From Mytilus trossulus (Eukaryota), in assembly GCF_036588685.1 (NCBI RefSeq), contig NC_086380.1, positions 33,530,313 through 33,594,312 of the forward strand: a stretch of DNA of 64,000 nt, given 5' to 3'. Of this stretch, positions 3,882-29,290 are shown one piece after another (position 1 is the stretch's first letter; each line of letters starts with the position of its first letter). Both the position numbers and the translations under genes were made by a program. The notes under the pieces are model-generated. The model saw nothing but the letters and a program-made list of their open reading frames with translations, had not been told where the DNA came from and did no database searches.

Positions 3882-3984
3882 TTAAGGCCTTTCTTTAAAG
3901 CTGGCCATAATACCATTTTTGGCTCTCATCACCACCTCTATAAAATGTTCTACTTCATGATCGGGATCTACAGTAATTTCAAAT
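3882..3984 (-). CDS. gene A exon 12, terminal (R-FEITVDPDHEVEHFIEVVMRAKNGIMASFKERP*)
   Basis: Acceptor TTACAG. TAA stop at 3882-3884 (minus). Homologous to the gene B terminal exon (RFEVTLDPDHTVIPFLEVVMRAKTGIMVNFKDRSS*). Confidence 0.8.
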
Positions 3985-4665
3985 CTGTAAATATTAAATA
4001 TTATATGTCAAATTTTTAGAAAAAAATATGCATGAATTTTATAAGCAATCAGACAAAAAAATCAAATTCAAAAACTTCAAAAATATTAAATGCAAAATTC
4101 GTCAAAGATCCTGATTCTAGTCTAACAACAATAATGTAATGTGTTAATAAAAATGTCATTTCTTTACAGTAAAAGTAACAATTATTTAAAGCAAAAGCAA
4201 AGCAAATGTTTTTACTGTAAACAAATAAGTGCAGAAAGTTTCAAATAAAACAATTCATGAAGAGGGTTGGAGCCTTCAAACATGATTGAGTTGCAACCTT
4301 CTTTATGTGCTAATCCCAATCCCAAGTCAGGAGCCTGTAGTTCATTGGTTTTCATTGGTTCATGTCTGTCATATTTGATTTTTTGTAAATTGTTTTAAAT
4401 TAATTAAGCTGTTAGTTTCCTCAATTGAATAATTGTTTCTTATGTTTCATGTTGGGGCAATTTTAGTTTTATAGCACACTATAAAGTATGGATTGTTTTA
4501 TTGCTCATTATTGAAAGCAGTCAATTTGCCTACTTTTGCTTGCATCCACTTCATTTAAACTTTGGTTGATAGATGCCTCATTGGTAATCACAATGGATTT
4601 CCATATTTCTGCCCCCCCCCCCAAAAAAAAAAAAATATCAATACAACAACATTACCTATTGACTA

Positions 4666-4731
4666 GTCTAGCAATTAGGACCTTTTCTTCATTTTGTGCA
4701 AAGGCTTGGCCAATACAATTTCTAAAATAAA
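4666..4731 (-). CDS. gene A exon 11 (R-NCIGQAFAQNEEKVLIARLVN-R)
   Basis: Acceptor ATTTTAG and donor GTAATG. 66 nt as in gene B. Completes FSAGPRNCIG with the heme-ligand Cys. Confidence 0.85.
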
Positions 4732-4974
4732 AAATATTCACATTGACTTATTTTTTACAGTGTGGAAAATTGAATAGAGTCAAAAGCTGCATTATTGATG
4801 TTTTCTCCTTACTAATAAATACTGTAGCAGTTCAGAAATTTAGTAAATTAAATGCTTATTGTCTCTTTCAAACTGCTGACATTCATAACTATCTTCATTC
4901 TTCTCCATGAAAGGAAAACAATTATAAAAATCCTTTTCAAGGACCTTTATCTTCTGTATTTACCCACTAATTTA

Positions 4975-5750
4975 TGGTGGATAATTTGTATTTACCATGG
5001 TCTAACTGAAAATGGAGTAAATCTATTAGGATCCTCTGCATTATAGGGGAGATAATTTATGTTCATTTCATTCAATTAGAAAGTGGAGTAAAACTATAAG
5101 GATCCTCTGCATTATAGGGGAGATAATTTATGTTCATCTCATTCAAGCAGAAAGTGGAGTAAAACTATAAGGATCCTCTGCATTATAGGGGAGATAATTT
5201 ATGTTCATCTCATTTAAGCAGAAAGTGGAGTAAAACTATAAGGATCCTCTGCATTATAGGGGAGATAATTTATGTTCATTTCATTCAAGCAGAAAGTGGA
5301 GTAAAACTATAAGGATCCTATGCATTATAGGGGAGATAATTTATGTTCATCTCATTCAAGCAGAAAGTGGAGTAAAACTATAAGGATCCTCTGCATTATA
5401 GGGGAGATAATTTATGTTCATCTCATTCAAGCAGAAAGTGGAGTAAAACTATAAGGATCCTCTGCATTATAGGGGAGATAATTTATGTTCATCTCATTCA
5501 AGCAGAAAGTGGAGTAAAACTATAAGGATCCTCTGCATTATAGGGGAGATAATTTATGTTCATCTCATTCAAGCAGAAAGTGGAGTAAAACTATAAGGAT
5601 CCTCTGCATTATAGGGGAGATAATTTATGTTCATCTCAATCAAGCAGAAAGTGAAAAAAAAACTATACAGATCCTCTGCATTATAGGGGAGATAATTCAT
5701 GTTCATCTCAATCAAGCAGAAAACGGAGTAAAACTATAAGGATCCTCCCC
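4975..5750 (-). repeat. 71-bp tandem array, about 11 copies, in gene A intron 10, derived from the exon 10/intron 10 junction
   Basis: Plus-strand monomer GGGGAGATAATTTATGTTCATCTCATTCAAGCAGAAAGTGGAGTAAAACTATAAGGATCCTCTGCATTATA. It aligns to 6001-6070, which is intron start GGGGAGATAATTCATATTTAC plus the exon 10 3' end. On the minus strand it reads DPYSFTP(L)SA…. Confidence 0.8.
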
Positions 5751-6022
5751 AAGAGGTTTGTTTCAATTAGTCTTCCACCATTATTAGAGATGATTCATAG
5801 TCACAGTGGTCAGGCAGAAAATTCATTAAAGTTTTAAGGATCTACTGAGAAAGTTTCTATTGAAACTTTCTACAGGAAAGGGGAGATAACTCAAATCTAA
5901 ATTTGTCAAGGAGAAAATAGAGTACAACTATAAGAAACTTCGAAGGAAGTCTGTATCAATTAAATCTTTTTTGTCTCTAGTTAATTTTGTTTTACATTTC
6001 AGGGGAGATAATTCATATTTAC

Positions 6023-6105
6023 CTTGGTCCAGCTGAAAAGGGAGTAAAACTGTAGGGATCCATATCATGATGTTTGTCTCCCTCAAATCTCTCTGGTTTA
6101 AATTC
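6023..6105 (-). CDS. gene A exon 10 (EFKPERFEGDKHHDMDPYSFTPFSAGP-R)
   Basis: Acceptor TTTCAG and donor GTAAAT. 83 nt as in gene B. PERF motif and start of heme-binding loop. The ORF-track stop after GPR is the GTAA of the donor. Confidence 0.85.
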
Positions 6106-7098
6106 CTGAAATTGCAAATAAATTGTATCAATATTTGCTTTATAGATAAAAAATGTTTGAAAGGTGAGTCTGGTTATTGATGTCTCATTCAAAATTGCAA
6201 ATAAACTACTGTTTTTAATATAAAAAAAAATTGTTTTTAAAATGATTATCGACATATTTTTATGTATTTGTTTTTGTTTATGTTTTACCATGCCAAAATT
6301 AAATGGCTAAAGAATGTGAATAGTTCCTACATTTAAAACAATTTCAATTGTATTCATTTCAATAGAATCCAAAAAAATCATTGACTGCTTGTTTTATTAC
6401 TGTTAAAAATAGAATGACACATAACCATTCTCTTGTCAAATTTTATATCTGATTTTAAATAATATGCCATAATGTTTCTGGATATTTGGTAATGTATAAT
6501 GCATCTTAGCTACTTTGTAGCTTGTAAAACTTTACTTTAATTTGTTTCTTGGATGGAGAGTTATCTCATTGGCACTCATACCACATCTTCTTAGATCTAT
6601 TTAACCTAATAGGACTTGTATTCAATCTAATGAAATGTATCATGTTGAATCTTATATTAAATTAACAACAGATATTTTTTTCATATTAAACATATTACAT
6701 TCTAAACCTTTCCCTTTCTTGTTGATTCATTTATTTTCATTGTTACCAATTTTAGTGTACTTAGGGAAAAAATTCATGAATATTTTATTTCTTGTTTTCC
6801 CAAAGTCTACATACAAACCAGAAAAAACATTGTTATTCATTGAACATTTAATTTCTTGGTTCACCTGCACCCATGAGATCCATGAAGATTGTTTTTCTAA
6901 CAAATAATGATGAACCCCTAGTAGTAAACCTTATTTAAGTATTTGAGTGTGGATTCCATTGACAGGTAAAAATAGCAGCATATGTCAACCCTGTCAATTC
7001 ACAATTTTACCCTCCTGTTAGAGGTCGTTCTAAAATTTGTGTTTTTGACCTTGATTTGACATTGGGAAACACCTTCAGCACCTATATTGTATAATTAC

Positions 7099-7294
7099 CC
7101 ATGGATCCTCCCATACATCAGGATGATGATGAGCATGATAGATAGCCATATCTATAAAACTGCCTTTAGGTATCTCTATACCTTCAATAATACATGGTTC
7201 ATCTAACATCCTACTGATAACTGGTACTGGGGTGTGGTGTCTCATTACTTCCTTCAGAAAACAGCTTAAATATTTCATTTTAGATATGTCTTCA
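7099..7294 (-). CDS. gene A exon 9 (EDISKMKYLSCFLKEVMRHHTPVPVISRMLDEPCIIEGIEIPKGSFIDMAIYHAHHHPDVWEDPW)
   Basis: Acceptor TTTTAG and donor GTAATT. 196 nt as in gene B. K-helix ExxR (EVMR). Overlaps minus ORF 7075..7278. Confidence 0.85.
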
Positions 7295-8098
7295 CTAAAA
7301 TAAAATATTTAAAAGATTAAAATAAAAAAACAAGAACATGATGAATGTAAGATGAGAAAAATATGACATTTTTTGTTGAATGATATGTACACAGTTAACT
7401 TTCATTATATTGAAACTGATCTGATGGGACATGATAAAAAAAATTAATTATATGAAATTTGACCAAAAAGGAGCTTACTTACAAACAATCAGGTGGAGAA
7501 AACTACATTTTGCACACATAGTTAAACCAGTATTGCTCATTATGATGTATTTTAATGGACAAGGATCAAATTCAAAGCCTTTTTTAGCAGATGGTATTAT
7601 TTTTAGTAGTTGTGTTTAAAAATACTGTATGATTTCTTTTAAGTTCGGCTTTGAAAGATATCTATAATGAAATATTTTTAGGCAAATATTAAGTCAACTG
7701 AGATAGAGGCAAAGAACAAGACTGTTTAGTTTATATAGATATAGGAAAATGTGGTGTGAGTGCCAATGAGACAACTCTCCATCCAAATAACAATGTATAA
7801 AAGAATTTCACAGTTTAACTTTGGCCCAGTATTTTCAGATAAGATTTTTGTAAAAGTTAAACAACTCCGAACGCAAAGTGATGAGAAAAACTCATTTGGA
7901 CCTTCAGGTAAGGTGAGCTAAAAATGTAGTCTTTCTACAGACTGTTACCTGGTGAACTAGCATGTTGGTCTAGTTAATAGCAGGGTTAATATTTATATTA
8001 CATGTACATGTTCTCGTCCTGATTATGCATATCAATTTGCCTCTGGACGTTAACCAAACATCCATCCTCATTATCAATTAATTAAGCCTTTTACTTAC

Positions 8099-8222
8099 CA
8101 ATCAACATACTGTTTGTCCCCAATGACCCCTCTGACCTCTTCATAAACTTTGTCCTGTATGTCTTTGTGTTTGCCTAAACTGTATATACTCCAGCTCAAC
8201 ACACTGGATGTAGTGTCGTGAC
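8099..8222 (-). CDS. gene A exon 8 ([42 protein letters not shown])
   Basis: Acceptor CATATAG and donor GTAAGT. 124 nt as in B and C. Overlaps minus ORF 8095..8313. Confidence 0.85.
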
Positions 8223-9537
8223 CTATATGCCATAGAAAGAGATACATTATCATTATGATCATCATTTCATGAGTGTAAAAATCAGATGTTAGCAAATAGA
8301 TGGAGCTATTCAAAAATATCCATCAAGAGCTGAGCACATAGATGAATAATGGAAGAATCTGACTTAATAGATTTAAAACTGTAGATATTATTCATTAATC
8401 TGATTCTGTTTCATCAACTTCTTTTTAACTTTATAAACAGTATTAACATACAATATCTTTCTCAAAATAACTTGAAACTACTAAAAAAAGGTTAACATTA
8501 CATAAGTTCATTGAATTTTGATACATAGATAAAATGCATACAACAGCGGTTTAAAATTAATCTTAAATCAAAAAGGTTATAGACTTTTGGGACTAACAAG
8601 TCAAAGTTCAGGCTGTGAAAAACAACGGTTAGAACTCAGGTTTTTAAAATAACTATTTTCAGGGGTCATTTATATTTACGGACGCCATCACGAGTTGGTT
8701 GACCGTTATGGAATTACCGTTTCACAAATGATATCGGATATGTTCCTTACGTCGTAACTACAATCCCCTTCCCTTTCATGAATGTGACCTACTGAATTAA
8801 GACTATTTACCGGATTTGATATCACATAAGCAACCCGACGGGTGCCATATGTGGAGCAGGATCTGCTTACCCTTACGGAGCACCTGAGATCACCCCTAGT
8901 TTTTGGTGGGGTTCATGTTGTTTATTCTTTGGTTTTCTATGTTGTGTCATGTGTACTATTGTTTTTTTTTTTTTTTTCATTTCTAGCCATGGCGTTGTCA
9001 GTTTGTTTTAGATTTATGAGTTTGACTGTCCCTTTGGTATCTTTCGTCCCTCTTTTAGGATCAGGACTCTTGATTTCTTTACATTTAAGTTTGTAGATTT
9101 AGGACATGCAGAATTCAGAACATCTGATACACAATTGGAATATATTGATTAACATATAAAATGCTGGATATTCAATCAAGTATATGTATAGCTTGCTGTT
9201 CCATGTGAGCCAAGGCTCTGTTTTGAAAACCATACTTTGACCTATAATGCTTTACTTTTACAAATTGCAAATTGGATTGAGAGTTGTCTTATTGACACTC
9301 ATACCACATCTTCTTATATCTATATATTTACATTAGATGTATGTTTCCTTATAATACTTTATTCTGATTGGCTAATTGCACATCACATGTTATTCCTTCT
9401 GCCATTGCATCACTCGATAAAACTTATCATCCGTGATAGCATGGGGTCCCACAATAAAGTGTACAGTTGAATTAAATAAAACAATATATAAAATTCGTTT
9501 TTTCATGACCATAGCTAAAATAAATGTAATTATAAGT

Positions 9538-9685
9538 ATTGAATGCTTCTTTTTGGAACTTCATAGGGTTGTAAAAGCTTGATCGTGCACCCATTTTTAG
9601 AATGAAGCGCTTCCACGCTTTGAACAAAATGTACTTCGGTCAACGCTTTTACAACCCAATGAAGTTACAAAAAGAAGTATTCAGT
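9538..9685. repeat. ~45-bp inverted repeat arms with ~60-bp spacer (MITE-like hairpin) in gene A intron 7
   Basis: ATTGAATGCTTCTTTTTGGAACTTCATAGGGTTGTAAAAGC is the reverse complement of GCTTTTACAACCCAATGAAGTTACAAAAAGAAGTATTCAGT, with one or two mismatches. Confidence 0.7.
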
Positions 9686-9724
9686 TCTTAAATATAAGCT
9701 TTAATTATAAATATAATCCTTTAC

Positions 9725-9857
9725 CAGCAAACATAAATGTATCCACCTCAGATCTGATCTCTACATTAGTCAATCCTTTACCAGATTCATCTCTCGCTGT
9801 TAACAAAATATCCAGAAAATCCAACTGTCTTTTCTTCTTTGTTTTGGAGTCGTCCTT
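9725..9857 (-). CDS. gene A exon 7 ([45 protein letters not shown])
   Basis: Acceptor TTTTATAG and donor GTAAAG. 133 nt as in B and C. Conserved LDFLDIL…EVDTF[ML]FAGHDTT I-helix region. Confidence 0.85.
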
Positions 9858-10593
9858 CTATAAAAGTATCAAGTTATAATAATTTCAATTCTAATGGTGA
9901 AAAAATTTAAAAGAAAAAAAATGAAATACTATGAATGCAATTTTCATTTGAGGTATAAGCTTTGTATTTATAGCTTTTTGTTTGTATGTTTTCACATTGT
10001 TTAAGAAGAAAAAAACATGTCAAAATCTAGCTCAAGTGGTGTACCCACATTAGCTGCCACAAAAAAAGTATAAATAAAAATGCTGTGAGTATTTTCCAGT
10101 TTACAATGCAAAAATTTGATCTGCAGTAGATCTAAAACCAGTTTATTTATGAATGACATATAATCATGTATTGTTCAATATATCATATACGTTGTATATC
10201 AATTTAAGCATGATAATTCTAGAGATTTTCCAAACAGTAATTTTTTGGTGCCCTTTACAGCTTGCTGTTCAGTGTGAGCCAAGGCTCCGTGTTGAAGACC
10301 ATACTTTGACCTATAATGGTTTTCCTTTTAAAATTAGGGCTTGGATGGAAGGTTGTGTCATTGGCACTCATATCACATCTACTTATATCTAAGGCTGGAA
10401 TACATGATATGTTATGAATGTATGCAATCCTGAATATGCAATAAAGGTTTCAATGTATCATCTATTATATCTGATTTTCAACATCTTAAAATATATCTAA
10501 ATAAAAGATAAAATGATATTAATTCACACCAGAAAACTTAAATTAAATTACATTTCAGTGAAAAAGGTCAACAATAGACATAATGCATCATAC

Positions 10594-10717
10594 CAAATCA
10601 TCTTTTCTCTTCAAAATAATATCTTCTGAAAACTCATGAACATAATCACAGAGCTTGAAAAATTCTTTACCACTAGGTGACAGCTTGAATAGAAATTCTG
10701 GATACAAGTTAATGTTT
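10594..10717 (-). CDS. gene A exon 6 (L-NINLYPEFLFKLSPSGKEFFKLCDYVHEFSEDIILKRKDDL)
   Basis: Acceptor TTGTAG and donor GTATGA. Homologous to B/C exon 6 (…GKEFFK[IL]C[ED]YVHKFSKDIIS…KEL). One codon shorter than B and C. Confidence 0.8.
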
Positions 10718-11539
10718 CTACAAAGTAAAGGCATTGTCAGTCATATATACAAAGTCCAATGATTCAAATTAAATAGTAACAGACTGCATGATTCAGTATA
10801 GTATTGAGACCATTTGGCATCAATTCAAATGAGTAATTTCATTACATTAATAAACAATATCACTATTTTGGTGCATTTCTCCTTTGATCTTTTATGTGAT
10901 AAATTTTTATATCATTTATTTGCTTAAGATGGAAAATTATATGAGAGTGCAGCACAGAAGCATCCTCTCCTTTGAAACCTTTGATAACCTATAAATAAAG
11001 TAATGCTGTCAATAATTTTTTCACAATGTATTGTGCAATTATTTGTTTTTAGAAAGTTTAAAGTTATAAATTTTTGGGCACCACAAAGTAAATTTCCCCT
11101 TCTCACCCAAAAAATATGACTGACTTTTTCTAGTGTGGTAAATTATGGTTGTGATCTTTTAACTTTAACTTTTACTAGCAAAAATTAGTTTTATCTTCTT
11201 ATTGGGACTCAGCATACTAAATTTGTTGAAGAAAACTGATGAAGACTGGGCATCGATATACTTGTCTGTCTGGTGTTGACATCATTTTTATCTGGATCCT
11301 CAATTGCTTTTAATTTTAATACAATAATCAAAGTTGGTCATATTTTGTCTGTAAGGGTTCTCAAAAGCAGCAATTGTTTACACGAATCACATGCTACCCT
11401 TTTTATTACACCACAATGAAAGTTAGGTATGCCTCATTCCAGGCATAAATTATCTTCTTTTTTCAGATCAAACAAACTTCTCACTATAAATATTTTGTAC
11501 TTCAAACAAAAAAAGTTCAGAACAGTATTTATAACTTAC

Positions 11540-11602
11540 AGACATCTATGTAGTGTTAGTTCAATCATTCTTTTAACAGCTTTAACATATGGATGGCTTT
11601 CC
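11540..11602 (-). CDS. gene A exon 5 (G-ESHPYVKAVKRMIELTLHRC-L)
   Basis: Acceptor CTTTACAG and donor GTAAGT. 63 nt as in genes B and C. SHPYV motif shared with B (DSHPYVTAV) and C (EHHPYVIAV). Confidence 0.8.
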
Positions 11603-12304
11603 CTGTAAAGATAAAATGTATCTTTTTATAATTGTGCCCATTTAGCAATAATAGCAGCAGAAGTCTAACAACTTTTCTTAGAGACTGAACTATTGGTGTT
11701 TTTATGATTTGAAATTATGCACATCTTTCAAAATAGCTAGTAAATTTTAATATACATAAATCCATCTTAGTAAATGTATCAACAGATGAACTATTCAATT
11801 TAATAAATCTATTAGATGGGAAATTTGCCATGTGACATATTCAAAAAGTCAACTTTTAAAAATAAGCAATTAAAACATGTGACAATAAAATTGAGAATGG
11901 ACATGGGGAAAGTGTCAAAAAGACAACAAAAAAAAGAGCAGAAAACATTCAGCAGATATACATTTCTAGAAAGCATGCATTGGACTATTGTCAACTATTT
12001 TTTAATTATTTGGGAAAATATTTCAAAAAATCTGTTTTTAAAGGATTTACGTATGTAAAGTTGACAGCTTTGGATCCAATTTATTGTACTCTTCTTTACA
12101 GAATCATGTATTGTTCATGTTGTATGGAGGTAGGTTCAAACCAATTTTTCTAGGAATTAATTAAAATTTAAATTGATGGAATTATATAGTAAATAAGGAT
12201 ACATCTACATAAAGAAATGTAGTTGAAAAACTCAACATGGTTGCAATTTGGGTACCCTCACGTTAATCCTGAATGCCAATTGATGATTAGAAAATTTGAT
12301 ATAA

Positions 12305-14350
12305 TTTCTTACCCTACATCTTGTATATTTCCTTTGTATGACAGAGCACACTGTAACAAGATATCTAGATCTTACCCTACGTCTTGTATATTCCCTTTGT
12401 ATGACAGAGCACACTGTAACAAGATATCTAGATCTTACCTTACGTCTTGTATATTCCCTTTGTATGACAGAGCACACTGTAACAAGATATCTAGATCTTA
12501 CCCTACATCTTGTATATTCCCTTTGTATGACAGAGCACACTGTAACAAGATATCTAGATCTTACCCGACGTCTTGTATATTCCCTTTGTATGACAGAGCA
12601 CACTGAAACAAGATATCTAGATCTTACCCGACGTCTTGTATATTCCCTTTGTATGACAGAGCACACTGTAACAAGATATCTAGATCTTACCCTACGTCTT
12701 GTATATTCCCTTTGTATGACAGAGCACACTGTAACAAGATATCTAGATCTTACCCTACATCTTGTATATTCCCTTTGTATGACAGAGCACACTGTAACAA
12801 GATATCTAGATCTTACCCTACATCTTGTATATTCCCTTTGTATGACAGAGCACACTGTAACAAGATATCTAGATCTTACCCTACATCTTGTATATTCCCT
12901 TTGTATGACAGAGCACATTGTAACAAGATATCTAGATCTTACCCTACGTCTTGTATATTCCCTTTGTATGACAGAGCACACTGTAACAAGATATCTAGAT
13001 CTTACCCTACGTCTTGTATATTCCCTTTGTATGACAGAGCACACTGTAACAAGATATCTAGATCTTACCCTACATCTTGTATATTCCCTTTGTATGACAG
13101 AGCACACTGTAACAAGATATCTAGATCTTACCCTACGTCTTGTATATTTCCTTTGTATGACAGAGCACATTGTAACAAGATATCTAGATCTTACACTACG
13201 TCTTGTATATTCCCTTTGTATGACAGAGCACACTGTAACAAGATATCTAGATCTTACCCTACGTCTTGTATATTTCCTTTGTATGACAGAGCACACTGTA
13301 ACAAGATATCTAGATCTTACCCTACGTCTTGTATATTCCCTTTGTATGACAGAGCACATTGTAACAAGATATCTAGATCTTACCCTACGTCTTGTATATT
13401 CCCTTTGTATGACAGAGCACACTGTAACAAGATATCTAGATCTTACCCTACGTCTTGTATATTTCCTTTGTATGACAGAGCACATTGTAACAAGATATCT
13501 AGATCTTACCCTACGTCTTGTATATTCCCTTTGTATGACAGAGCACACTGTAACAAGATATCTAGATCTTACCCTACATCTTGTATATTCCCTTTGTATG
13601 ACAGAGCACACTGTAACAAGATATCTAGATCTTACCCTACATCTTGTATATTCCCTTTGTATGACAGAGCACACTGTAACAAGATATCTAGATCTTACCC
13701 TACGTCTTGTATATTCCCTTTGTATGACAGAGCACATTGTAACAAGATATCTAGATCTTACCCTACGTCTTGTATATTCCCTTTGTATGACAGAGCACAC
13801 TGTAACAAGATATCTAGATCTTACCCTACGTCTTGTATATTCCCTTTGTATGACAGAGCACATTGTAACAAGATATCTAGATCTTACCCTACATCTTGTA
13901 TATTCCCTTTGTATGACAGAGCACATTGTAACAAGATATCTAGATCTTACCCTACGTCTTGTATATTCCCTTTGTATGACAGAGCACACTGTAACAAGAT
14001 ATCTAGATCTTACCCTACGTCTTGTATATTTCCTTTGTATGACAGAGCACACTGTAACAAGATATCTAGATCTTACCCTACATCTTGTATATTCCCTTTG
14101 TATGACAGAGCACACTGTAACAAGATATCTAGATCTTACCCTACGTCTTGTATATTCCCTTTGTATGACAGAGCACACTGTAACAAGATATCTAGATCTT
14201 ACCCTACCTCTTGTATATTCCCTTTGTATGACAGAGCACACTGTAACAAGATATCTAGATCTTACCCTACGTCTTGTATATTCCCTTTGTATGACAGAGC
14301 ACACTGTAACAAGATATCTAGATCTTACCCTACATCTTGTATATTCCCTT
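12305..14350 (-). repeat. 63-bp satellite, block 1, about 33 copies, in gene A intron 4; monomer is the exon 4 3' end plus the intron 4 5' splice site
   Basis: Head-to-tail repeats with period 63. Minus-strand monomer ATCTTGTTACAGTGTGCTCTGTCATACAAAGGGAATATACAAGA[CT]GTAGG|GTAAGATCTAGAT. Copies differ by a few point substitutions (C/T, G/T). Confidence 0.9.
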
Positions 14351-14764
14351 TTTATACTGCAATCAGCTAGTTTACTGTACAGATAAAGCTATACGTATAA
14401 ACGTAAGCTTTATACGTCAATGACCCCAACTGACCTATAAGCCCCGCCTCCTTATTGTATTTCATCAACAACATCACGTCACGACCATGACAACGTAAAG
14501 TAACAATGGTCAAACTTTTTTCAATTTAAACTTTTATGTCTTCAAATTGGTTATTTATATATCATGTTTATCAAATGTTATTAATTAAGTTCATTTTCCC
14601 TTTCTAATTCCTTAATACGCCAATGTCTTACCACCTGGACTACGCTCATAGGGAAATACCCCAAAATGGTACCTCTAGAGGGAAATTCCAAACACTTTTT
14701 TTAACAATTTTTGTTACATGTTTTTTTCATTTTTCATTTTTTTTTTCGATTTCAGTATAAAAAC

Positions 14765-14895
14765 AATATACGTATAGTGTCTTGAAATATGAAATTTATT
14801 TGTATTCGGCAAGAAACGAGAAAATGCTCGGTAGAACCTCGCATTTTCCCATTTCTAAGCCTCATACAAATAAATTTCATATTTCAAGACACTAT
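14765..14895. repeat. Perfect 41-bp inverted repeat with a 49-bp spacer, lying between the two satellite blocks
   Basis: AATATACGTATAGTGTCTTGAAATATGAAATTTATTTGTAT (14765-14805) is the exact reverse complement of 14855-14895. The spacer holds a smaller palindrome GAAAATGC…GCATTTTC. Confidence 0.85.
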
Positions 14896-14897
14896 AC

Positions 14898-16515
14898 GTA
14901 TATTGTCTAAGTATGACAGAGCACACTGTAACAAGATATCTAGATCTTTATACCCTACGTCTTGTATATTCCCTTTGTATGACAGAGCACACTGTAACAA
15001 GATATCTAGATCTTACCCTACATCTTGTATGTTCCCTTTGTATGACAGAGCACATTGCAACAAGATATCTAGATCTTACCCTACATCTTGTATATTCCCT
15101 TTGTATGACAGAGCACACTGTAACAAGATATCTAGATCTTACCCTACGTCTTGTATATTCCCTTTGTATGACAGAGCACATTGTAACAAGATATCTAGAT
15201 CTTACCCTACGTCTTGTATATTTCCTTTGTATGACAGAGCACATTGTAACAAGATATCTAGATCTTACCCTACATCTTGTATATTCCCTTTGTATGACAG
15301 AGCACACTGTAACAAGATATCTAGATCTTACCCTACGTCTTGTATATTTCCTTTGTATGACAGAGCACATTGTAACAAGATATCTAGATCTTACCCTACG
15401 TCTTGTATATTCCCTTTGTATGACAGAGCACATTGTAACAAGATATCTAGATCTTACCCTACGTCTTGTATATTCCCTTTGTATGACAGAGCACACTGTA
15501 ACAAGATATCTAGATCTTACCCTACGTCTTGTATATTTCCTTTGTATGACAGAGCACATTGTAACAAGATATCTAGATCTTACCCTACGTCTTGTATATT
15601 CCCTTTGTATGACAGAGCACATTGTAACAAGATATCTAGATCTTACCCGACGTCTTGTATATTCCCTTTGTATGACAGAGCACATTGTAACAAGATATCT
15701 AGATCTTACCCTACGTCTTGTATATTCCCTTTGTATGACAGAGCACACTGTAACAAGATATCTAGATCTTACCCTACATCTTGTATATTCCCTTTGTATG
15801 ACAGAGCACACTGTAACAAGATATCTAGATCTTACCCTACATCTTGTATATTCCCTTTGTATGACAGAGCACACTGTAACAAGATATCTAGATCTTACCC
15901 TACGTCTTGTATATTTCCTTTGTATGACAGAGCACATTGTAACAAGATATCTAGATCTTACCCTACGTCTTGTATATTCCCTTTGTATGACAGAGCACAC
16001 TGTAACAAGATATCTAGATCTTACCCTACGTCTTGTATATTTCCTTTGTATGACAGAGCACACTGTAACAAGATATCTAGATCTTACCCTACATCTTGTA
16101 TATTCCCTTTGTATGACAGAGCACATTGTAACAAGATATCTAGATCTTACCCTACGTCTTGTATATTCCCTTTGTATGACAGAGCACACTGTAACAAGAT
16201 ATCTAGATCTTACCCTACGTCTTGTATATTCCCTTTGTATGACAGAGCACACTGTAACAAGATATCTAGATCTTACCCTACGTCTTGTATATTCCCTTTG
16301 TATGACAGAGCACACTGTAACAAGATATCTAGATCTTACCCTACATCTTGTATATTCCCTTTGTATGACAGAGCACACTGTAACAAGATATCTAGATCTT
16401 ACCCTACATCTTGGATATTTCCTTTGTATGACAGAGCACACTGTAACAAGATATCTAGATCTTACCCTACATCTTGTATATTCCCTTTGTATGACAGAGC
16501 ACACTGTAACAAGAT
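14898..16515 (-). repeat. 63-bp satellite, block 2, about 25 copies, abutting and overlapping gene A exon 4
   Basis: Same monomer as block 1. The last copy (16466-16515) is the genuine 3' end of exon 4, ending at the real AGG|GTAAGA donor. Confidence 0.9.
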
Positions 16516-16590
16516 TTCTAATGTAGCCAGTCCTGAATATTGAAACACTTCCACATATTTTCCATTCTTACTTTCCTCTGCAAACTTCTC
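16466..16590 (-). CDS. gene A exon 4 (EKFAEESKNGKYVEVFQYSGLATLEILLQCALSYKGNIQDVG); its last 50 nt are also the terminal monomer of the 63-bp satellite
   Basis: Acceptor TTTAACAG and donor AGG|GTAAGA. 125 nt as in genes B and C. Homologous to B (DKLASG...LLQCSLGYKGNVQLVG) and C (DKLAFM...LLQCALGYKGDVQQVG). Confidence 0.8.
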
Positions 16591-16935
16591 CTGTTAAAGA
16601 AAATAGAATATTAGACCTTATATATTTGATTATTTTACCTTTTGAGATTTTTAGAGATAAGTACGTATGTACATATTATAGTTTTCAAAAATAAATATTT
16701 TCATGATATAAAACCCTAGTCTCCTCTTTAGATCATAAGTTGAAATTGGGGCAGATGTGTTTTATACTGAGAAAATGTGTGTTCAAAAGTCAAGATCAAA
16801 TATTTGTCATGTTCATTTGCTGCCCTAGCTAAAGAAAGTAAACTTTTCAGCCATCAGATTTAAAAACTTAAATCAATGTTTTTTGATGTTGACTTACAAA
16901 TTTAACATAATAAGGTTATATAAAATATTACTTAC

Positions 16936-17063
16936 TAATAATGTATCTGTCACATCATTGTATATTTTGAAGTACCCATTTAAAATGGAGAAATGAAACG
17001 CTGGTGTTAACAATCTTCTGTTTCTTTCCCACTTTGGTCCATCTGCAACCAGTAAACTTTCAC
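16936..17063 (-). CDS. gene A exon 3 ([43 protein letters not shown])
   Basis: Acceptor CACAG and donor GTAAGT. 128 nt as in genes B and C. Conserved WxxxRxxxxPAFH motif. Confidence 0.85.
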
Positions 17064-17704
17064 CTGTGCATAAATATAAGGATACCATATTTTCTAATTT
17101 TCAAGTTTTGGTTACGGTAGATTATTGGCAAATTATGTAAAATTTTGTATCAAAAGACATTCAAATGAGTGATGTTCATTTTATGTTTGAAAATTTAACA
17201 GATTAGCAGAGATATCATGTAGCCTTTGTAATAGTTAAATCTTTTTCTACTATTTTTTTTAAAGAATTGCTTATATATCATGCATTAAATGCAGACATTT
17301 TATAGGGATTGACAGTTTATTAATGTGATCAGGTATGCCTTTTTTTCAACTGAATTTATCGATCCATGACACAGTGTAGGTGAACTTTATTTTGTGAACC
17401 TTGTCTAGCTATTATTGCAAATGCAATAATGGTACTGCAGATTGATTCATTATTATTCGTTGGATACCAATTTTTGTCAGTTTCATGGGTACAGGTGAAC
17501 CACAATATTCAAATGTTCAACATATTACAAATTTTCTAGACTTTGGGTATGCAGAGATTGGCAAATACCATGAAATCAAATATCCACGAAAATGTAAGTT
17601 TTCCTCAATACACAAAAATTGATAACAATGAAAATAAATGACTCCATAGTATACACATACACAAATTATCTGCCCCTTGTATGGACTTATTTGCCTAAAC
17701 TTAC

Positions 17705-17906
17705 CTATCCATGGTAACATAAAGGAGATTCCTGCCCCTTTTCTAGACTTTGGTGCAGTTGACTTCATAACGACCTTTATAGTGTCTGGATGGGTCAAGG
17801 TCAGTAAAGGTCGTACAACAAATAACCAGTAGACGAAAGCTTTACATCTTTTTTCTTCCACATATTCCTTAAACATCTTTTTGAAAAATCCATCAAAGGA
17901 TTCAAT
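17705..17906 (-). CDS. gene A exon 2 (IESFDGFFKKMFKEYVEEKRCKAFVYWLFVVRPLLTLTHPDTIKVVMKSTAPKSRKGAGISFMLPWI-G)
   Basis: Acceptor TTGTAG and donor GTAAGT on minus strand. 202 nt, same length as gene C exon 2. Ends in phase 1. Confidence 0.8.
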
Positions 17907-19254
17907 CTACAAAATTGAGTGTCAGCGTGGTGTGATAAGCTGGATGACATATATAGGGTGATCATTTTCAAGATCTGGGATTTTTTATTGTTATTTTTAT
18001 GTAATTATGCTTTTTTCCTTCTTTTTCCCAGATGCCACCTTTGTCCCCTCTACAAATGTATATCCCACATCCCTACATTTTTACCCTTATATTCCCACAA
18101 ACTAAAAGTCTGTCATCCCCCTTTCTGTGATAGTTTGAAAGACAATAACAATCAAAACCAAAGAGTAAGCAAAGACTCACAAAACCAAAGGACATTTACA
18201 TCAACAGTTATAAATAATAATTAAGAAACAACACGAATTCCACTAAAAACCGGGAAAAATATAGATAATGTCCAGGGGCAACTATCACATATCTACACCC
18301 ATTCCAGGAGAATAGGTCTATCAGGCATTAAAAAAAGACAATTATAGAAATTTGGAATTTATTACCTTTTTCTCATTTCATCAACACAGGTACCAGCAAA
18401 AAATGTTATAATATCTTTGATAGTTTTTGTTAAATTTCTTTTTTCTTTTTTTGGACTTTGGGACAATAATTTTATTTTACATATTTTTGTTGTTGAAGAC
18501 TGTATGTTAATTTCTATATATCTTTATTACAGCTATCTGTGTTTTTGGGTAGTTGTCTTATTGATATATATACTACCATATTTCATTTTATTCATCATGA
18601 TCATATAAATGACTCAATATTGATTCTATTTGTTGACTTTTTTTGGTCGAACTGTGCATTTCAAATATGATGTCTTTTATTTTTGTACCATTGGATTGCC
18701 GTCTCATTGGTATCATATATATCCCACACCTTTTAAATGTTTAACCCTGCCACATTATTTATGTCCCTGTCTTTTGAATAATTTGACATTTTGTTTTTCC
18801 TGGTGCCTTTAAATTTATAGCTTATCAAAGATATGGAATTCCTCATTGTTACAGACTGTACATGACATATTATTAGTTATCTTGGTGTAATCAGGGGTGT
18901 ACAGAATTTTACACTGTTGTTGAAAATTCATACACCCTGAGGCGCAAATTTATTCATTTTTTTATTTTTTATTTATTTTTTTTTTATTTATTTTTTTTTG
19001 GCAAAATTTTATTTATCCCGAGGTGAACAAGGGTGTGGTGTTATTTACACCCGGGTAATTAACCAATCAGATTGCAGTATTTTTTGCTGCATAAGACAAA
19101 AAGTTGTTTACATCCTTGTCTGATTAATTTTCATTGAATAATTGTATGCTTGGCAATCATGTCCTATCTCCAAATTTTCAGACTTGTATATTTAAATTCT
19201 TTAAATTGGAATAAATTATTGTATAAAGTTAATATATTTTTTAAGTCTAAATAC

Positions 19255-19419
19255 CTGGAGTGCATTTCCAAACAACCAATGTGTTTTAGGTCCTGGAAAA
19301 TGAGACAGAGTCCTGACCATATTACCATGCCATTGTAAGAACTTGATGAGGTTTATAATGATAACTGTGAGGATCAAAACACCTACACCAATCCCTATTG
19401 ACATCAAAACAGCTACCAT
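19255..19419 (-). CDS. gene A exon 1 (MVAVLMSIGIGVGVLILTVIIINLIKFLQWHGNMVRTLSHFPGPKTHWLFGNALQ)
   Basis: ATG at 19419 (minus). Hydrophobic N-terminal membrane anchor then PGP hinge. Donor GTATTT immediately 3' (revcomp of 19249-19254). Phase 0. Confidence 0.8.
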
Positions 19420-22770: not shown

Positions 22771-24119
22771 GTATATTCCTACCCTCCTAAATTTCCAGTT
22801 TTAATATAATGTTGTCTATTGTTATAATAATGGAGGATTTCAAGCATTAATACCTCAGTCTCATAAATCGGAAAACATATAAGCAAGTCTGTACTTAAAA
22901 CAGAAGATTGAAGAAGAGTGAGCTTAAAGGATCTGTTAGTGACATACTGTCACGAACAAACTTGTTTCATAAATAAATTCTCAGTTCGGGATGTAGTGCA
23001 TAGGGGAGGGAAACGAGCATTGAATTTCGATTCGCAAAAAATGTCAACAAAATGAAGGGACAATGAATGTTATCGAAAGGATTTATAGAATAGCAAAAAT
23101 CTATCTATTTGCTTGCTAGATTTTGTGAATTTTTTCGTTCAGGTAAACTAGTTGTAACTTAATATTTTACATCATGGTAAGTTATGATTTATTTCGGGAT
23201 CTACGTTTAAATGGGGCATAATTCTAAAAAAGGGGGAGGACAAAATGACATGATCAAATCCCTATTGTGATTCGTAGTTTTTAGATTATATTTGGCTCTG
23301 TTGTTAGAAGATTGGCATGTAGATAGACACGTAGACATGACTTTTGAATGACCCTGATGGCCTTGTGCTGTTTTCCGCTGCTCTTTGGTCAGGTTGTTGT
23401 CTCTTTGACACATTCACCGTTTCCATTTTTAATTTTATATAGCTGGGAATAGTATTGTCAACATATTATGTCCCAGGTTTTAAAAGCATGAATGTTTTAG
23501 AGCTATATAACTGATAAAATTTATTAAATTGCCTCGGCATGTAAAATGTAAAACAAAGAACAGCTGACAACCTGACAACCTGATTAATGTACAATGAAAA
23601 ACAAATATATTAAAGATAACGGCAACAACTGACTCACTCATCAGATTGATTGATTGATTGGTGTTATAACACCGTTTTCATCACTTAAATGTGCTATTTC
23701 TTATCAGTTTTTAGTAGTGAAATCAATAGTCATGATAGTGCCATGCAGAGAGAACCACCAAATTCGACTACTAATAGACCACCCTGCAACCAAAGCCCCC
23801 CCCCCCCCCCCCCCATTGGCTCATCAGACCAACACAAATCACACTAAAAATCAACTATAGCAAAAAGATTTAAGAGACATAACTATTTAAAGTAACGTTC
23901 TTCATGCAAACTGTACAAAAAAAGACTTTATTAAATACGTCATGTTTGCTAGTACAAACTAGTCCTACAGGAATGTACAAGGAATCTAGTAGGAATTTGT
24001 TATGAATTAATTCCTAACAGGAAAGTGTGCATATTCCAGCTTCATTGTAGCAGAAATCCACCAGGAAAAACAGCCTAGGATTTTCTTAGTTAAGGAATAA
24101 TGTGATTCCTACTAGGTAT

Positions 24120-25562
24120 ATATATTCAAATTTATTTTACACCACTGGGTCGATGCCACTGCTGGTGGACGTTTCGTCCCCGAGGGTATCACCAGCCCAG
24201 TAGTCAACACTTCGGTGTTGACATGAATATCAATAATGTGGTCATTTTTATAAATTCCTGTATACAAAACTTTGAACTTTTTGAAAAACTAAGGATTTTC
24301 TTATCCCAGGCATAGATTACCTTAGCAGTATTTGGCACAACTTTTTGGAATTTTGGATCCTCAATGCTCTTCAACTTTGTACTTGTTTGGGTTTATAAAT
24401 ATTTTTGATTGGAGCGTCACTGATGAGTCTTATGTAGACGAAACGCGCGTCTGGCGTACTAAATTATAATCCTGGTACCTTTGATAACTATTTACACCAC
24501 TGGGTCGATGCCACTGCTGGTGGACGTTTCGTCCCCGAGGGTATCACCAGCCCAGTAGTCAACACTTCGGTGTTGACATGAATATCAATAATGTGGTCAT
24601 TTTTATAAATTTCCTGTATACAAAACTTTGAACTTTTTGAAAAACTAAGGATTTTCTTATCCCAGGCATAGATTACCTTAGCCGTATTTGGCACAACTTT
24701 TTGGAATTTTGGATCCTCAATGCTCTTCAACTTTGTACTTGTTTGGTTTATAAATATTTTTGATTGGAGCGTCACTGATGAGTCTAATGTAGACGAAACG
24801 CGCGTCTGGCGTACTAAATTATAATCCTGGTACCTTTGATAACTATTTACACTTCTGGGTCGATGCCACTGCTGATGGACGTTTCGTCCCCGAGGGTATC
24901 ACCAGCCCAGTAGTCAACACTTCCGTGTTGACATGAATATCAATAATGTGGTCATTTTTATAAATTTCCTGTATACAAAACTTTGAACTTTTTGAAAAAC
25001 TAAGGATTTCTTATCCCAGGCATAGATTACCTTAGCCGTATTTGGCACAACTTTTTGGAATTTTGGATCCTCAATGCTCTTCAACTTTGTACTTGTTTGG
25101 GTTTATAAATATTTTTGATTGGAGCGTCACTGATGAGTCTTATGTAGACGAAACGCGCGTCTGGCATACTAAATTATAATCCTGGTACCTTTGATAACTA
25201 TTTACACCACTGGGTCGATGCCACTGCTGGTGGACGTTTCGTCCCCAAGGGTATCACCAGCCCAGTAGTCAACACTTCGGTGTTGACATGAATATCAATA
25301 ATGTGGTCATTTTTATAAATTTCCTGTATACAAAACTTTGAACTTTTTGAAAAACTAAGGATTTTCCTATCCCAGGCATAGATTACCTTAGCCGTATTTG
25401 GCACAACTTTTTGGAATTTTGGATCCTCAATGCTCTTCAACTTTGTTCTTGTTTGGGTTTATAAATATTTTTGATTGGAGCGTCACTGATGAGTCTTATG
25501 TAGACGAAACGCGCGTCTGGCGTACTAAATTATAATCCTGGTACCTTTGATAACTAATTATA
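24120..25562 (+). repeat. Tandem array of four ~359-bp retrozyme-like units, each containing a hammerhead ribozyme motif
   Basis: Unit starts at about 24126, 24487, 24846 and 25204, with over 97% identity. Each carries GGAGCGUCA-CUGAUGA-GUCU(uaugu)AGAC-GAA-A-CGCGCG-U-C|UGGCGUAC. Confidence 0.85.
24411..24465 (+). ncRNA. Type-I minimal hammerhead ribozyme (copy 1; equivalent copies near 24771, 25129 and 25487)
   Basis: Conserved core CUGAUGA…GAAA. 4-bp stem II GUCU/AGAC with a 5-nt loop. Helix III is reduced to an A:U pair closing a palindromic CGCGCG loop. GUC cleavage triplet. 7/8-bp stem I (GAGCGUCA / UGGCGUAC, including G:U wobbles). Confidence 0.7.
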
Positions 25563-26690: not shown

Positions 26691-28914
26691 CAGTTAGGGT
26701 AAAATGTGTTAAAATCCTTGCCGTCAAGTCCAAATTATAACATGTATTCCTGATTCCATTCAACACTTGCACTCAGGGTGAGTATTTTATTAGTTCCAGG
26801 GAGCTTATTGAAGATTAAAGTGACAATCCCAAGAGTCTGAAATAAAATTTGATCAATATGTACAACATGCATGTACATCAATTGATGTAAGGAATGAAGT
26901 ACAAATTAGATGAAATTGATTTGGTTTATCTATATATACAATTGTGATTACAAGTATATGTGTATGGCAGCCTCGGACAAGAAACAACATATTTTATTCA
27001 GTATCCAGAATTCAGTTTTCTATTTTACCATAGGATCTCTGTATTTGTCAATGTCAAAACATAAATATATATACAAAGATAGATGTGACGGTTTTTATTT
27101 ATGTAAATACATATAATATATTATATATTAATTATCAGATTATCATGATTATCAAATATATATATGTTTTTTTTTCCTTTCATCATTTTATTCCTAAAAT
27201 CATGGTAACCTCAGAAATCATTGTAATATCATAAAAGATTGCAATAAAGATAATTCTGTCTGTTATTGCATAGATCTGTAATGAGTATCTTTGATTGACA
27301 ATGAATTATTGACCTTGAACTTGAACTGTATTATCTAAATACATTTATATATATATATATATATATATAATAGTAATGTTGACAATGTAGGTATAATTTA
27401 AGGAATGCGTTTAGGGTACTTTTATTTACAGAATATAACTATTAAAAGTCTTTTAATCATGTTAATGTCTTATGATATATATATATATTTATATCATATA
27501 TCTTGCCTTTTAATATTTAAATCTACATTACCCATTAATAGATTCAGCCAAATATGTTTTAACAGATCCTCTAGATTTAAGATTTAAAGCTCGGACATTT
27601 ATCAGTACAGGTAAACTCAGTTTGGTGCATTCAACTTCCACTTATGTTGATTAAACATTGTGTAGTACATGTTTATATATATAAATAACAAGGACAAACA
27701 AATGTAAACTACCTACTGTTTTGGAGCAAACACTTGGGATATTACACCTTATTTCAGGTAAAACTATGAACTAAGTGGTCTAGCTTAAAATCACTGGTCA
27801 GTACATTCATCATTAAACTTTACACTAATAGCATTGATTATATTTCATGTATTATATTACTTTGGTTTTAAAGTTACAAAGTAACTAAATCTTATAAAAC
27901 TTCTTTTACATGTACTTTTTAGCCCACCTGGCCCAAAAGGGCCAAGTGAGCTTTTCTCATCACTTGGTGTCTGTCGTCTGCCGTTGTCGTCGTCTGTCGT
28001 TGTCATCGTTGTCCGTTTACTTTTACAAAAATCTTCTCCTCTGAAACTACTGGGCCAAATTAAACCAAACTTTGCCTAAATCATCCTTAGGGTATCTAGT
28101 TTTTAAAATGTATCCAAAGACCCTGGCCATCAACCAAGATGGTCGCCATGGCTAAAAATAGAACATGGGGGTAAAATGCAGTTTGTGGCTTATATCTTTG
28201 AAACTAAAGCATTTATAGCAAATCTGAGAAGGAGTAAAATTGTTCATCAGGTAAAGATCTATCAGCCCTTAAAATTTCAGACGCATCAAACAACCCCTTG
28301 TTGGGTTGCTGCCCCTGAATTGGTAATTTTAAGGAAATTTTGCAGTTTTTGGTTATTTTCTTGAATATTTTAATAGATAGAGATAAACTGTAAACAGCAA
28401 ACTTGTTCAACTGAAGATATCAAGGATTTGTATAATAGTAAGACATATTCTTGGTGATATTTAAATAATGGCCCAGTCTCAACAGTTAAACAGAAATGGC
28501 TTTGTAAAAGGGCAACTGAGTTACTAATATAAACATCATAAACATGGTCTTTATTTAATTGGGGGGTTTTAATGACTACAAACTGTTCTTACTAAGCTAT
28601 TTATAAAATTTTACTGAAATTAGTTCATTGACTAATGGAACTTTTGCATAGTTTACATGATTAAAGTTTTAATGTTTAGGTGAATTGAAAGGGAACCAAT
28701 TTTGATAAGTCAGTGGTATCCGCAGTGGTGTTTGATTGGTAGATGAATTGACTTAAAGCATTGGCAATTTTCTCTTCATTTCCATGGAGGTAATTGGGCT
28801 CTGAAACTTTAGTCATGATTCATTAACGTTGAATAATTTAAATTGTTTATATGTTCAAATTATAAATGCCATTTTGATTTTATAAATTTCATTATTCTAT
28901 CAAAATTACATAAA

Positions 28915-29290
28915 TAAAATTGAGAATGGAAACAGGGAATGTACATGTCAAAGAGACAGCAACCGGACCAAAGAGAAGAAAACAGCTCAAGGCCACCAAT
29001 GGGTCTTCAACACAGCGAGAAAATCCTGCACCCAGAGATAGGCTTCAGCTGGCCCCTAAACAAAAATTTGTACTAGTTCAGCGAAAATGGACGTCACACT
29101 AAACTCTGAAACTCATAAATGATTATTTTTTTAAACATACAAGACTGTAACAAAGGCCAGAGGCTCCTGACTTGGGACAGGCACAAAAATGTGCCACATT
29201 AAACATGTTTTGCATGATCTCAACCCTCCCCCTATTCCTCTAGCCAATTTAGAATAAACAAACACACAGAATCTGAGTCAGATGTTAGAA
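28915..29290 (+). mobile_element. SINE-like interspersed repeat, family 'AAATTGAGAATGGAAA…', copy ending ~175 bp upstream of the gene B ATG
   Basis: Homologous copies or fragments at 11865-11995 (+), 23200-23460 (−), 30855-31260 (−), 58590-58720 (+), 4260-4340 and possibly 8840-9080. Confidence 0.6.

Follow-up and report, generated by a model that had tools for sequence, protein, structure and literature searches.

An intronic minisatellite, probably lineage-specific, that reiterates the exon 4/intron 4 junction of a Mytilus trossulus CYP4 gene

Intron 4 of a functional CYP4 gene (hereafter gene A) of the mussel Mytilus trossulus contains a long tandem repeat of the gene's own exon 4 end and 5' splice site. 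We analysed this repeat within a window of 64,000 nucleotides, the whole stretch of DNA examined here (contig NC_086380.1, assembly GCF_036588685.1), and consider it likely to be a lineage-specific minisatellite whose first monomer lies across the exon 4/intron 4 boundary, which was duplicated in situ and expanded while the first donor continued to be chosen. It would most likely be neutral or slightly deleterious rather than an adaptation. The array had initially been described as a satellite, but it is a single-locus repeat of 3.6 kb with 58 head-to-tail units of 63-bp period, within the size range of minisatellite units (about 10–100 bp), and is therefore a minisatellite. It belongs to a class already described, the intronic minisatellites that reiterate an exon/intron junction (F7/LMNB2/PDGFA/IFI6/CBS type, PMC1557585): unit 1 spans the exon 4/intron 4 boundary, the host gene is intact and the repeat stems from the gene's own junction.

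The array and its host gene

Gene A (3882–19419, minus strand) is an intact gene of 12 exons that encodes 503 amino acids, including the heme motif FSAGPRNCIG. Its spliced model has GT-AG boundaries at all 11 introns, and the deduced product matches the NCBI M. trossulus protein XP_063396178.1 residue for residue, which removes the concern, raised in the earlier note, that the exon 4/intron 4 junction might have been mis-called. The proteins matched by gene A carry the domain PF00067 and are named CYP4B1/4A/4F-like, as expected of P450 family 4; these matches were obtained with the full-length model, whereas the 42-aa peptide of exon 4 alone had no match in the protein library. Exon 4 (16466–16590, minus strand, 125 nt) is delimited by the spliced model and by tblastn matches with both paralogues (B and C); its final bases are GG and its end is in phase 2. 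It is followed by the authentic 5' splice site GTAAGA (16460–16465, minus strand; AGG/GTAAGA, with the slash at the junction), the first of 58 reiterated donors and the only one with an open reading frame into exon 5 (11540–11602, minus strand, 63 nt), which holds its acceptor partner. The NCBI annotation of gene A pairs the same two sites. Two older Mytilus annotations of this gene are fragmentary.

Tandem Repeats Finder (TRF) detected a single 63-bp array (12307–16520, score 5860), which an in-register parse of the minus strand resolved into 58 head-to-tail units extending from 16515 to 12307 in intron 4, in agreement with the approximately 58 copies first estimated; this copy number is that of one haplotype in a single M. 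trossulus assembly. As had also been proposed, the array lies on the intron side of the junction and its terminal unit is the real exon end, the exon part of unit 1 being the last 50 nt of exon 4 (16515–16466). The monomer does combine the 3' end of exon 4 with its 5' splice site, but not as 50 nt of exon plus 13 nt of intron: each unit consists of ~55–56 exon-derived nt, GTAAGA and 1–2 further nt, and only GTAAGA is demonstrably intronic. The motif CTAGAT, previously counted as intron, is a Leu-Asp codon pair that every orthologue, and also paralogue B, has at this position; the units retain this ancestral form, and the M. trossulus exon copy now reads TTAGAA.

The donor is well preserved along the array. 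GTAAGA follows the exon-like part in 57 of the 58 units, although the exact AGG/GTAAGA once attributed to about 58 copies is present in 52 (53 if the insertion in unit 25 is removed). Unit 25 is 66 nt long because of this 3-nt insertion, which changed its donor to GTATAAAGA. The acceptor-like sequence supposed to occur in every copy (TTACAG/TTTCAG) was found in just 41 units, with CAA in the remaining 17. Unit 58 terminates at GTAAGA (12312–12307), beyond which unique intron sequence begins.

The array consists of two blocks separated in phase by an insertion of 559 bp (14352–14910, minus strand), close to the ~550-bp spacer of the earlier description. Block 1 (14911–16515, minus strand) contains units 1–25 and the opening 27 nt of unit 26, at which point the insertion splits this unit; block 2 (12307–14351, minus strand) resumes in phase with its last 36 nt, followed by units 27–57 and unit 58. 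The perfect 41-bp palindrome reported at the end of the spacer corresponds in fact to an imperfect foldback of 144 nt (14763–14906), made of 48-nt arms with 96% complementarity and a 48-nt centre, which folds as one hairpin (-95.5 kcal/mol, z = -19.5). We found no further copies of the insertion in the window or in loci L001–L005, no Rfam match for it and no clear target-site duplication at its borders. Its ends do not match the canonical termini of Helitrons (TC...CTRR between A and T). The insertion is probably transposon-derived, foldback/MITE-like and younger than the array, and may have entered unit 26 once the latter had formed.

Origin and expansion from the exon 4/intron 4 junction

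At five orthologous loci, representing four further Mytilus species (M. californianus, M. coruscus, M. edulis and, with two assemblies, M. galloprovincialis), the 63-mer is present once, without any array. In all of them GTAAGAAATTAT comes after this single copy, as it does after the last unit of the M. trossulus array; the copies at the orthologous junctions are each followed by GT(A/G)AGAAATTA, matching the M. trossulus sequence past that unit. The non-repeated remainder of intron 4 (11603–12306, minus strand) accordingly begins with AATTAT..., continuing the ancestral intron start, although farther in it shares nothing with the intron 4 of M. edulis and M. galloprovincialis. In these two species intron 4 measures ~172 bp, versus 4863 bp in gene A of M. 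trossulus; in gene B it has the 886 bp noted previously. The single copy at the five loci implies that the exon is ancestral and the repeat derived from it, as the earlier note had held on the basis of the paralogues, and that the amplification belongs to the M. trossulus lineage or haplotype alone.

Because the array runs directly from native exon to native intron, without foreign sequence at its ends, an origin in situ is indicated: a segment of ~63 bp, comprising the last 55–56 nt of exon 4, GTAAGA and 1–2 junction bases, was tandemly duplicated. In the Rogers model, tandem duplication of an exon segment containing AGGT creates an intron. The mussel case resembles it in the doubling of splice signals by tandem duplication, but here the duplication only lengthens an existing intron. 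Intron gain can in fact be rejected, since the codon position of intron 4 is unchanged in every orthologue and in paralogues B and C.

The repeat may then have been expanded to its 58 copies, and mixed, by slippage during replication together with unequal exchange and conversion among units. The units differ from one another by a mean of 1.5 positions per 56 nt, and we found no higher-order repeat structure in the array. Three variants are common among units, where they occur in all eight combinations, and the similarity of units is independent of the distance between them, two observations that fit exchange among units.

The distribution of this variation by codon position suggests that the exchange might even involve the exon. 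Seven of the nine variable sites are third codon positions (p about 0.003–0.008 in a post hoc test), and the three common variants affect the same synonymous sites, with the same alleles, that differ between the exons of different species (chance probability 2e-4). Such a synonymous-site bias is not predicted by the simple neutral decay of intronic copies. It would be explained if the decoy units were in ongoing exchange with the functional exon end, by inter-allelic conversion, unequal exchange or the minting of new units from unit 1, so that the array archives exon alleles and can return them; unit 1 itself physically belongs to the array. However, the test covers nine sites only and was made post hoc, position 45 is a CpG that may simply be hypermutable, and the exon-like units show no visible polarity toward the 5' end. 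We regard this exchange as unlikely. Its full form, in which the 57 intronic decoys and the functional exon end make up one recombining unit, with the array as a running archive or reservoir of synonymous exon alleles, is somewhat more doubtful. If true, it would account for a codon-position-biased intronic variation that matches exon differences between species.

Splice-site choice and effect on the gene

Survival of the gene with an array formed in this way would depend on the spliceosome joining the most upstream donor, contiguous with exon 4, to the acceptor of exon 5, all 57 decoy donors being removed within the 4.9-kb intron. This predicted use of the first donor rests on the gene annotation, which is possibly homology-driven, and on mammalian precedent. 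With any decoy donor the reading frame runs GTA GGG TAA and stops immediately, and inclusion of a 38-nt pseudo-exon meets TAG; both kinds of product are thus expected to be lost to nonsense-mediated decay. Since donor 1 would be chosen and decoy use ends at once in a stop codon, the array appears to be tolerated and is probably harmless. The plausible acceptor AG of 41 units makes splicing internal to the array conceivable, a counterpoint to the view that the decoys are silent. Some in vitro work with duplicated strong donors has favoured the site nearest the acceptor. Which of several duplicated donors is preferred has been a matter of dispute (PMC1557585).

Precedents come from human genes. 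F7, IFI6, CBS, LMNB2 and PDGFA all carry minisatellites with a first monomer across an exon/intron boundary; the upstream donor alone is used in F7 (IVS7), LMNB2 and PDGFA, while in IFI6 and CBS the first two decoys are used too, constitutively, giving alternative transcripts (PMC1557585). The 37-bp VNTR of F7 intron 7 has 5–9 copies of a monomer made of 4 nt of exon and 33 nt of intron (Borensztajn et al. 2006, PMC1557585). The mussel array shares with it the boundary-spanning first monomer and the authentic donor followed by identical pseudo-donors in a functional gene, but has 58 copies in which the exon contributes 55–56 nt and the intron about 7 nt, lies in a mollusc P450 gene and is known from sequence alone, whereas upstream-only donor use has been observed in F7. 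Also similar in monomer design are LMNB2 (100 bp x 10–15) and PDGFA intron 4 (81 bp x 16–18; both cited in PMC1557585), where long monomers combine a substantial exon segment with the donor, most of the intron is taken up by the array and only the authentic donor is seen to be used. These human repeats have fewer copies, and the mussel one differs further in being interrupted by a later insertion and absent from sister species. IFI6 (6-16) intron 2, with its authentic donor and 25 pseudo-sites, and CBS intron 13, with a 31-bp VNTR of 15–20 repeats (Turri 1995; Yang 2000; Lievers 2001, cited in PMC1557585), resemble gene A in their many reiterated donors at the exon/intron border; in the mussel, however, decoy use hits an immediate TAA, so that no alternative protein is possible.

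The IFI6 and CBS examples leave room for a second alternative, namely that the array has an effect: the 57 decoy donors, together with the 41 acceptor-like sites, could divert a meaningful fraction of transcripts to stop-containing products or slow the processing of the 4.9-kb intron, lowering the output of gene A in M. trossulus as a regulatory or mildly deleterious variant, in which case copy number could tune expression, as reported for the 31-bp VNTR of CBS. The influence on splice-site choice, transcription elongation or local chromatin that the earlier note had proposed is likewise conjectural. The retention of GTAAGA in all but one unit, the premature stop that accompanies every decoy use, the contrast in intron length with M. 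edulis and M. galloprovincialis and, at least from a title in the reference list of PMC1557585, a link between the CBS VNTR and reduced activity are all in line with such an effect. Yet the F7 decoys are wholly unused in spite of being identical to the authentic site, gene A shows no other defect and donor 1 is the one used in its annotated product; these points make this alternative improbable in our opinion.

No new biology is required, as both the class of repeat and the usual outcome in favour of the upstream donor are already described. The 58 copies exceed the donors of any junction-reiterating minisatellite listed in PMC1557585, where all those listed are from vertebrates. The locus is a natural experiment on the choice of 5' splice sites: 58 strong, almost identical donors lie in their native exon context ahead of a single real acceptor, and an acceptor-like AG is close to 41 of them. 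The sister species with a repeat-free intron of 172 bp provide built-in controls. Junction arrays of this type can also break gene prediction and read mapping.

Assembly, dispersed repeats and a second junction array

Tandem repeats are prone to assembly errors and only one M. trossulus assembly was available, so that the array, or its length, might be an artefact of a mis-expanded or mis-joined repeat. We consider this very improbable: the units are not identical but form an irregular mosaic of the eight variant combinations, with an indel of 3 nt and the unique insertion of 559 bp, which preserves the phase; artefactual expansion rarely gives such a pattern, and collinearity with the orthologues holds on either side of the array.

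Transposon-carried arrays with satellite-like organisation abound in bivalve genomes, among them the Helentron-associated repeats of Crassostrea gigas, which occupy many dispersed loci flanked by transposon parts (PMC7492417), and several arrays of this sort are found within our window. The C. gigas repeats and the gene A array are both short tandem arrays in euchromatic, often intronic, DNA, but the latter is exon-derived, single-locus in the data available and bordered by its own parental flanks. Outside the array, the only copies in the rest of the window were the homologous exons of genes B and C, and neither 146 kb of related loci nor two protein libraries nor a metagenome scan showed any sign of the repeat. 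In these searches, the unit-unit junction 29-mer GTAGGGTAAGATCTAGATATCTTGTTACA gave 0 hits when JGI metagenomes were scanned for exact matches, no protein matched a chimeric query built from the two open frames of the array, and phmmer, run with 12 units against the whole library, yielded only repeat-like matches of 16–32% identity, judged spurious. The exon sequence occurs once and is conserved in the four other Mytilus species as well as in paralogues B and C, the native flanks are devoid of transposon ends, and there were no matches elsewhere in the data searched. On these grounds it is scarcely credible that the 63-mer is a satellite, dispersed through the genome or carried by transposons, with a mere resemblance to the exon, or that the exon end derives from the repeat.

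Gene A contains a second junction-derived array in intron 10 (5008–5747, minus strand), with 10.4 copies of a 71-bp unit that comprises the 3' part of exon 10 (6105–6023), the donor and about 25 nt of intron. Its homogenised decoys have lost GT. This array is older than that of intron 4, showing that junction arrays are tolerated for long periods. The possibility that its copies act as alternative exons was discarded, as those of M. californianus hold stops and frameshifts. If the decoys and the functional exon end do recombine as one unit, the presence of independent junction arrays in both intron 4 and intron 10 of gene A would further suggest that mussel genomes repeatedly mutate by reiterating splice junctions.

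Structure of the intron 4 array and its host gene

We modelled gene A, the CYP4 gene hosting the array, by tblastn of window fragments against its two paralogues in the window (genes B and C), inspecting every boundary. It lies on the minus strand (19419-3882), with 12 exons, GT-AG borders at all 11 introns and a 503-aa open reading frame containing the heme loop FSAGPRNCIG. The best database matches of its product were Mytilus CYP4 proteins. Exons 4 (16590-16466, minus) and 5 (11602-11540, minus) flank an intron of 4863 bp. The exon 4/intron 4 junction called in the earlier note was correct, as the spliced model was identical, by exact-sequence look-up, to XP_063396178.1/179/181/182, 'cytochrome P450 4B1-like [Mytilus trossulus]'.

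Tandem Repeats Finder reported a single 63-bp array (12307-16520, score 5860), which, read in register on the minus strand, contains 58 units, the first being the true exon 4 end with its donor (donor 1, 16465-16460, minus). Units 1-25 run from 16515, and in unit 25 an insertion of 3 nt changes the donor to GTATAAAGA. A 559-bp insertion (14910-14352) breaks unit 26 after its first 27 nt, and the other 36 nt continue exactly in phase. Next come units 27-57; unit 58 ends in GTAAGA (12312-12307), beyond which the intron is non-repeated (AATTAT...). The distance from first to last donor is 4153 bp (57 x 63 + 3 + 559). On average, 1.5 of 56 positions differ between units; GTAAGA is kept in 57 of the 58, and the exact AGG|GTAAGA in 52 (53 if the insertion in unit 25 is removed before counting). 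An acceptor-like site had been claimed for every copy; it occurs, as ...TTACAG or TTTCAG, in 41 units, the other 17 having CAA at the same place.

The unit had also been read as 50 exonic plus 13 intronic nucleotides, a split overturned by the exons of the orthologues and paralogue B, all of which have CTAGAT or TTAGAT (Leu-Asp) in the six bases before ATCTTG. The array units carry CTAGAT at this place and the M. trossulus exon copy alone TTAGAA (Leu-Glu). Because the CTAGAT of the units corresponds to these Leu-Asp codons, at least 55-56 nt of the unit are exon-derived and GTAAGA alone can be shown to be intronic, with 1-2 joint bases (T, C) of ambiguous origin, exon or intron. The units have preserved the ancestral Asp codon, which has since changed in the functional M. 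trossulus exon.

We found no second copy of the spacer that splits unit 26 in the window or in the five orthologous loci. Its transcription-proximal end is an inverted repeat (14763-14906; 48-nt arms, 48-nt centre), a near-perfect foldback of 144 nt predicted to form one hairpin (-95.5 kcal/mol, z = -19.5), and the remainder lies between the two members of a 16-nt inverted pair (14349-14364 / 14748-14763). The insertion resembles one or two small elements of foldback/MITE type and, since it splits a single unit in phase, arrived after the array existed.

Origin and distribution of the array

Comparison with related species, suggested in the earlier note, covered the orthologous loci of M. californianus (L001), M. 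galloprovincialis (L002 and L004, from two assemblies), M. edulis (L003) and M. coruscus (L005). In each of the five loci (146 kb) the 63-mer occurs exactly once, where exon 4 ends, and none has an array, in agreement with the proposal that the satellite derives from the junction of an ancestral exon. Every orthologue continues after exon 4 with GT(A/G)AGAA(A/T)TTA, the sequence found beyond the last array unit in the window, and the intron of paralogue B likewise starts with GTAGGTAATTAT. The array has the ancestral exon body on its transcription-proximal side and the ancestral intron on its distal side; since the flanks are native exon and native intron, this arrangement is the signature of in-situ tandem amplification across the junction. 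Because the array is absent from the four other species, including the two closest, the amplification either took place in the M. trossulus lineage or represents a polymorphic haplotype of that species.

All matches to an exon 4 probe within the window fell on the exon itself, on the other 57 units or on the homologous exons in genes B and C. The array is open in two reading frames; these had no protein match among 5.8 billion clusters, and a filter-free search of 1.84 billion representatives gave only repeat-like matches (16-32% identity). The 29-mer spanning the unit-unit junction was not found in JGI metagenome contigs, and the array ends have no transposon flanks. Within the window, the five related loci, the protein libraries and the metagenome contigs, these results point to an array private to this locus.

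[quoted passage not shown] That of M. californianus holds a 17-bp x 8 minisatellite and a 134/268-bp array (L001 14894-15030 and 16230-17587); by eye, unaligned, the 17-bp unit resembles a stretch that is single in the M. edulis and M. galloprovincialis introns. The orthologous intron gathers tandem repeats independently in different species. The exon 4 donor differs between the two M. galloprovincialis assemblies (GTGAGA, L002 12769; GTAAGA, L004 5949). The M. coruscus orthologue spans ~41 kb (L005 3001-44406), versus ~11-19 kb in the other species, because of greatly expanded introns. Older annotations of the gene are fragmentary: P0002 (392 aa) is missing parts of exons 6 and 7, and exon 5 is skipped in P0122 (M. 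edulis).

Variation among units and splice-site choice

Nine positions vary across the 58 units, none of them in GTAAGATCTAGAT. In the exon frame, seven of them (9, 12, 33, 36, 39, 45 and 48) are third codon positions and two belong to the split Gly codon, an excess of third positions with a binomial probability of 0.003-0.008, depending on the denominator, in a post hoc test. The three common variants (CAG/CAA, GGG/GGA, GAC/GAT) are all synonymous and correspond, in site and alleles, to differences separating the single-copy exons of other species; these 50 nt contain only four sites that differ between species, so that three sites drawn at random would all fall on them with a probability of 2e-4. 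All eight combinations of these variants are present, and similarity among the 58 units did not depend on the distance between them. Codon constraint should not act on intronic copies, and simple neutral decay does not account for the codon-position bias. Exon alleles may have been imported by inter-allelic conversion or unequal exchange, unit 1 being itself an array member; new units may have been minted from unit 1; or the variable sites may be mutational hotspots, position 45 being a CpG.

An open frame into exon 5 results from donor 1 alone, which the public annotation also joins to that exon. Read-through past donor 1 (GTA GGG TAA) meets an immediate stop, and joining exon 4 to an in-array acceptor would, from the sequence, create a 38-nt pseudo-exon ending in TAG. 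Donor 1 would be chosen as the first one encountered after the exon 4 acceptor, by exon definition or 5'-to-3' scanning, the remainder of the array would leave with the intron, and nonsense-mediated decay would be expected to remove the products of rare splicing errors. We infer this choice of donor because human genes offer a direct precedent (Borensztajn et al., PMC1557585). In the F7 array (37 bp x 5-9), 50 constructs revealed that identical pseudo-sites are functional, yet the most upstream always wins. The authentic donor alone is used in LMNB2 (100 bp x 10-15) and PDGFA (81 bp x 16-18), and the first two decoys are used too in IFI6 (25 pseudo-sites) and CBS (15-20 repeats). The mussel array has the structural characteristics of this class; first-donor use in gene A has indirect support, from the annotation. 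Arrays of this kind are already known from human genes and the mechanism is not new, but the mussel array is unusually large, invertebrate and species-specific, and has an older companion in the same gene. Most likely, it is a tolerated, near-neutral expansion. The earlier observation and its structural and evolutionary interpretation hold with small corrections. The array is well suited as a natural substrate for experiments on splice-site choice and is a curiosity of mussel genome dynamics.

A second junction array and other repeats

Intron 10 of gene A contains another array (5008-5747, minus; 71 bp x 10.4), whose unit comprises the 3' part of the heme-loop exon 10 (6105-6023), the donor and ~25 nt of intron. 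Intron 10 of paralogue B (46337-46952) and of all five orthologues (including L001 23769-24162, L002 20204-20651, L003 12396-12745 and L004 15770-16211) has three to six degenerate copies of the exon 10 junction, which in M. californianus are contiguous with the exon. Because of these copies, the array must predate the A/B gene split, and it was re-amplified in M. trossulus. The homogenised 71-bp M. trossulus units have lost the GT, and the intron 10 decoys are therefore disabled. Of the 11 introns of gene A, two thus contain repeats derived from a splice junction, an old one and a new one.

The introns of paralogue B hold further tandem arrays of 114-168 bp (33150-34432 and 37410-37874), dispersed satellite-like repeats of the sort usual in bivalve genomes. 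A 355-bp x 4 tandem array (24136-25560) lies between genes A and B, which are divergently oriented; it has a type I hammerhead ribozyme match (25124-25167, plus strand; 35 bits, Rfam gathering score 34) and fits the retrozyme-type repeats reported from mussels (PMC7229834). A short dispersed repeat in the remainder of intron 4 (~11885-11947) also occurs at 23369-23438, 28913-28984, 31210-31254 and 58576-58620 of the window.
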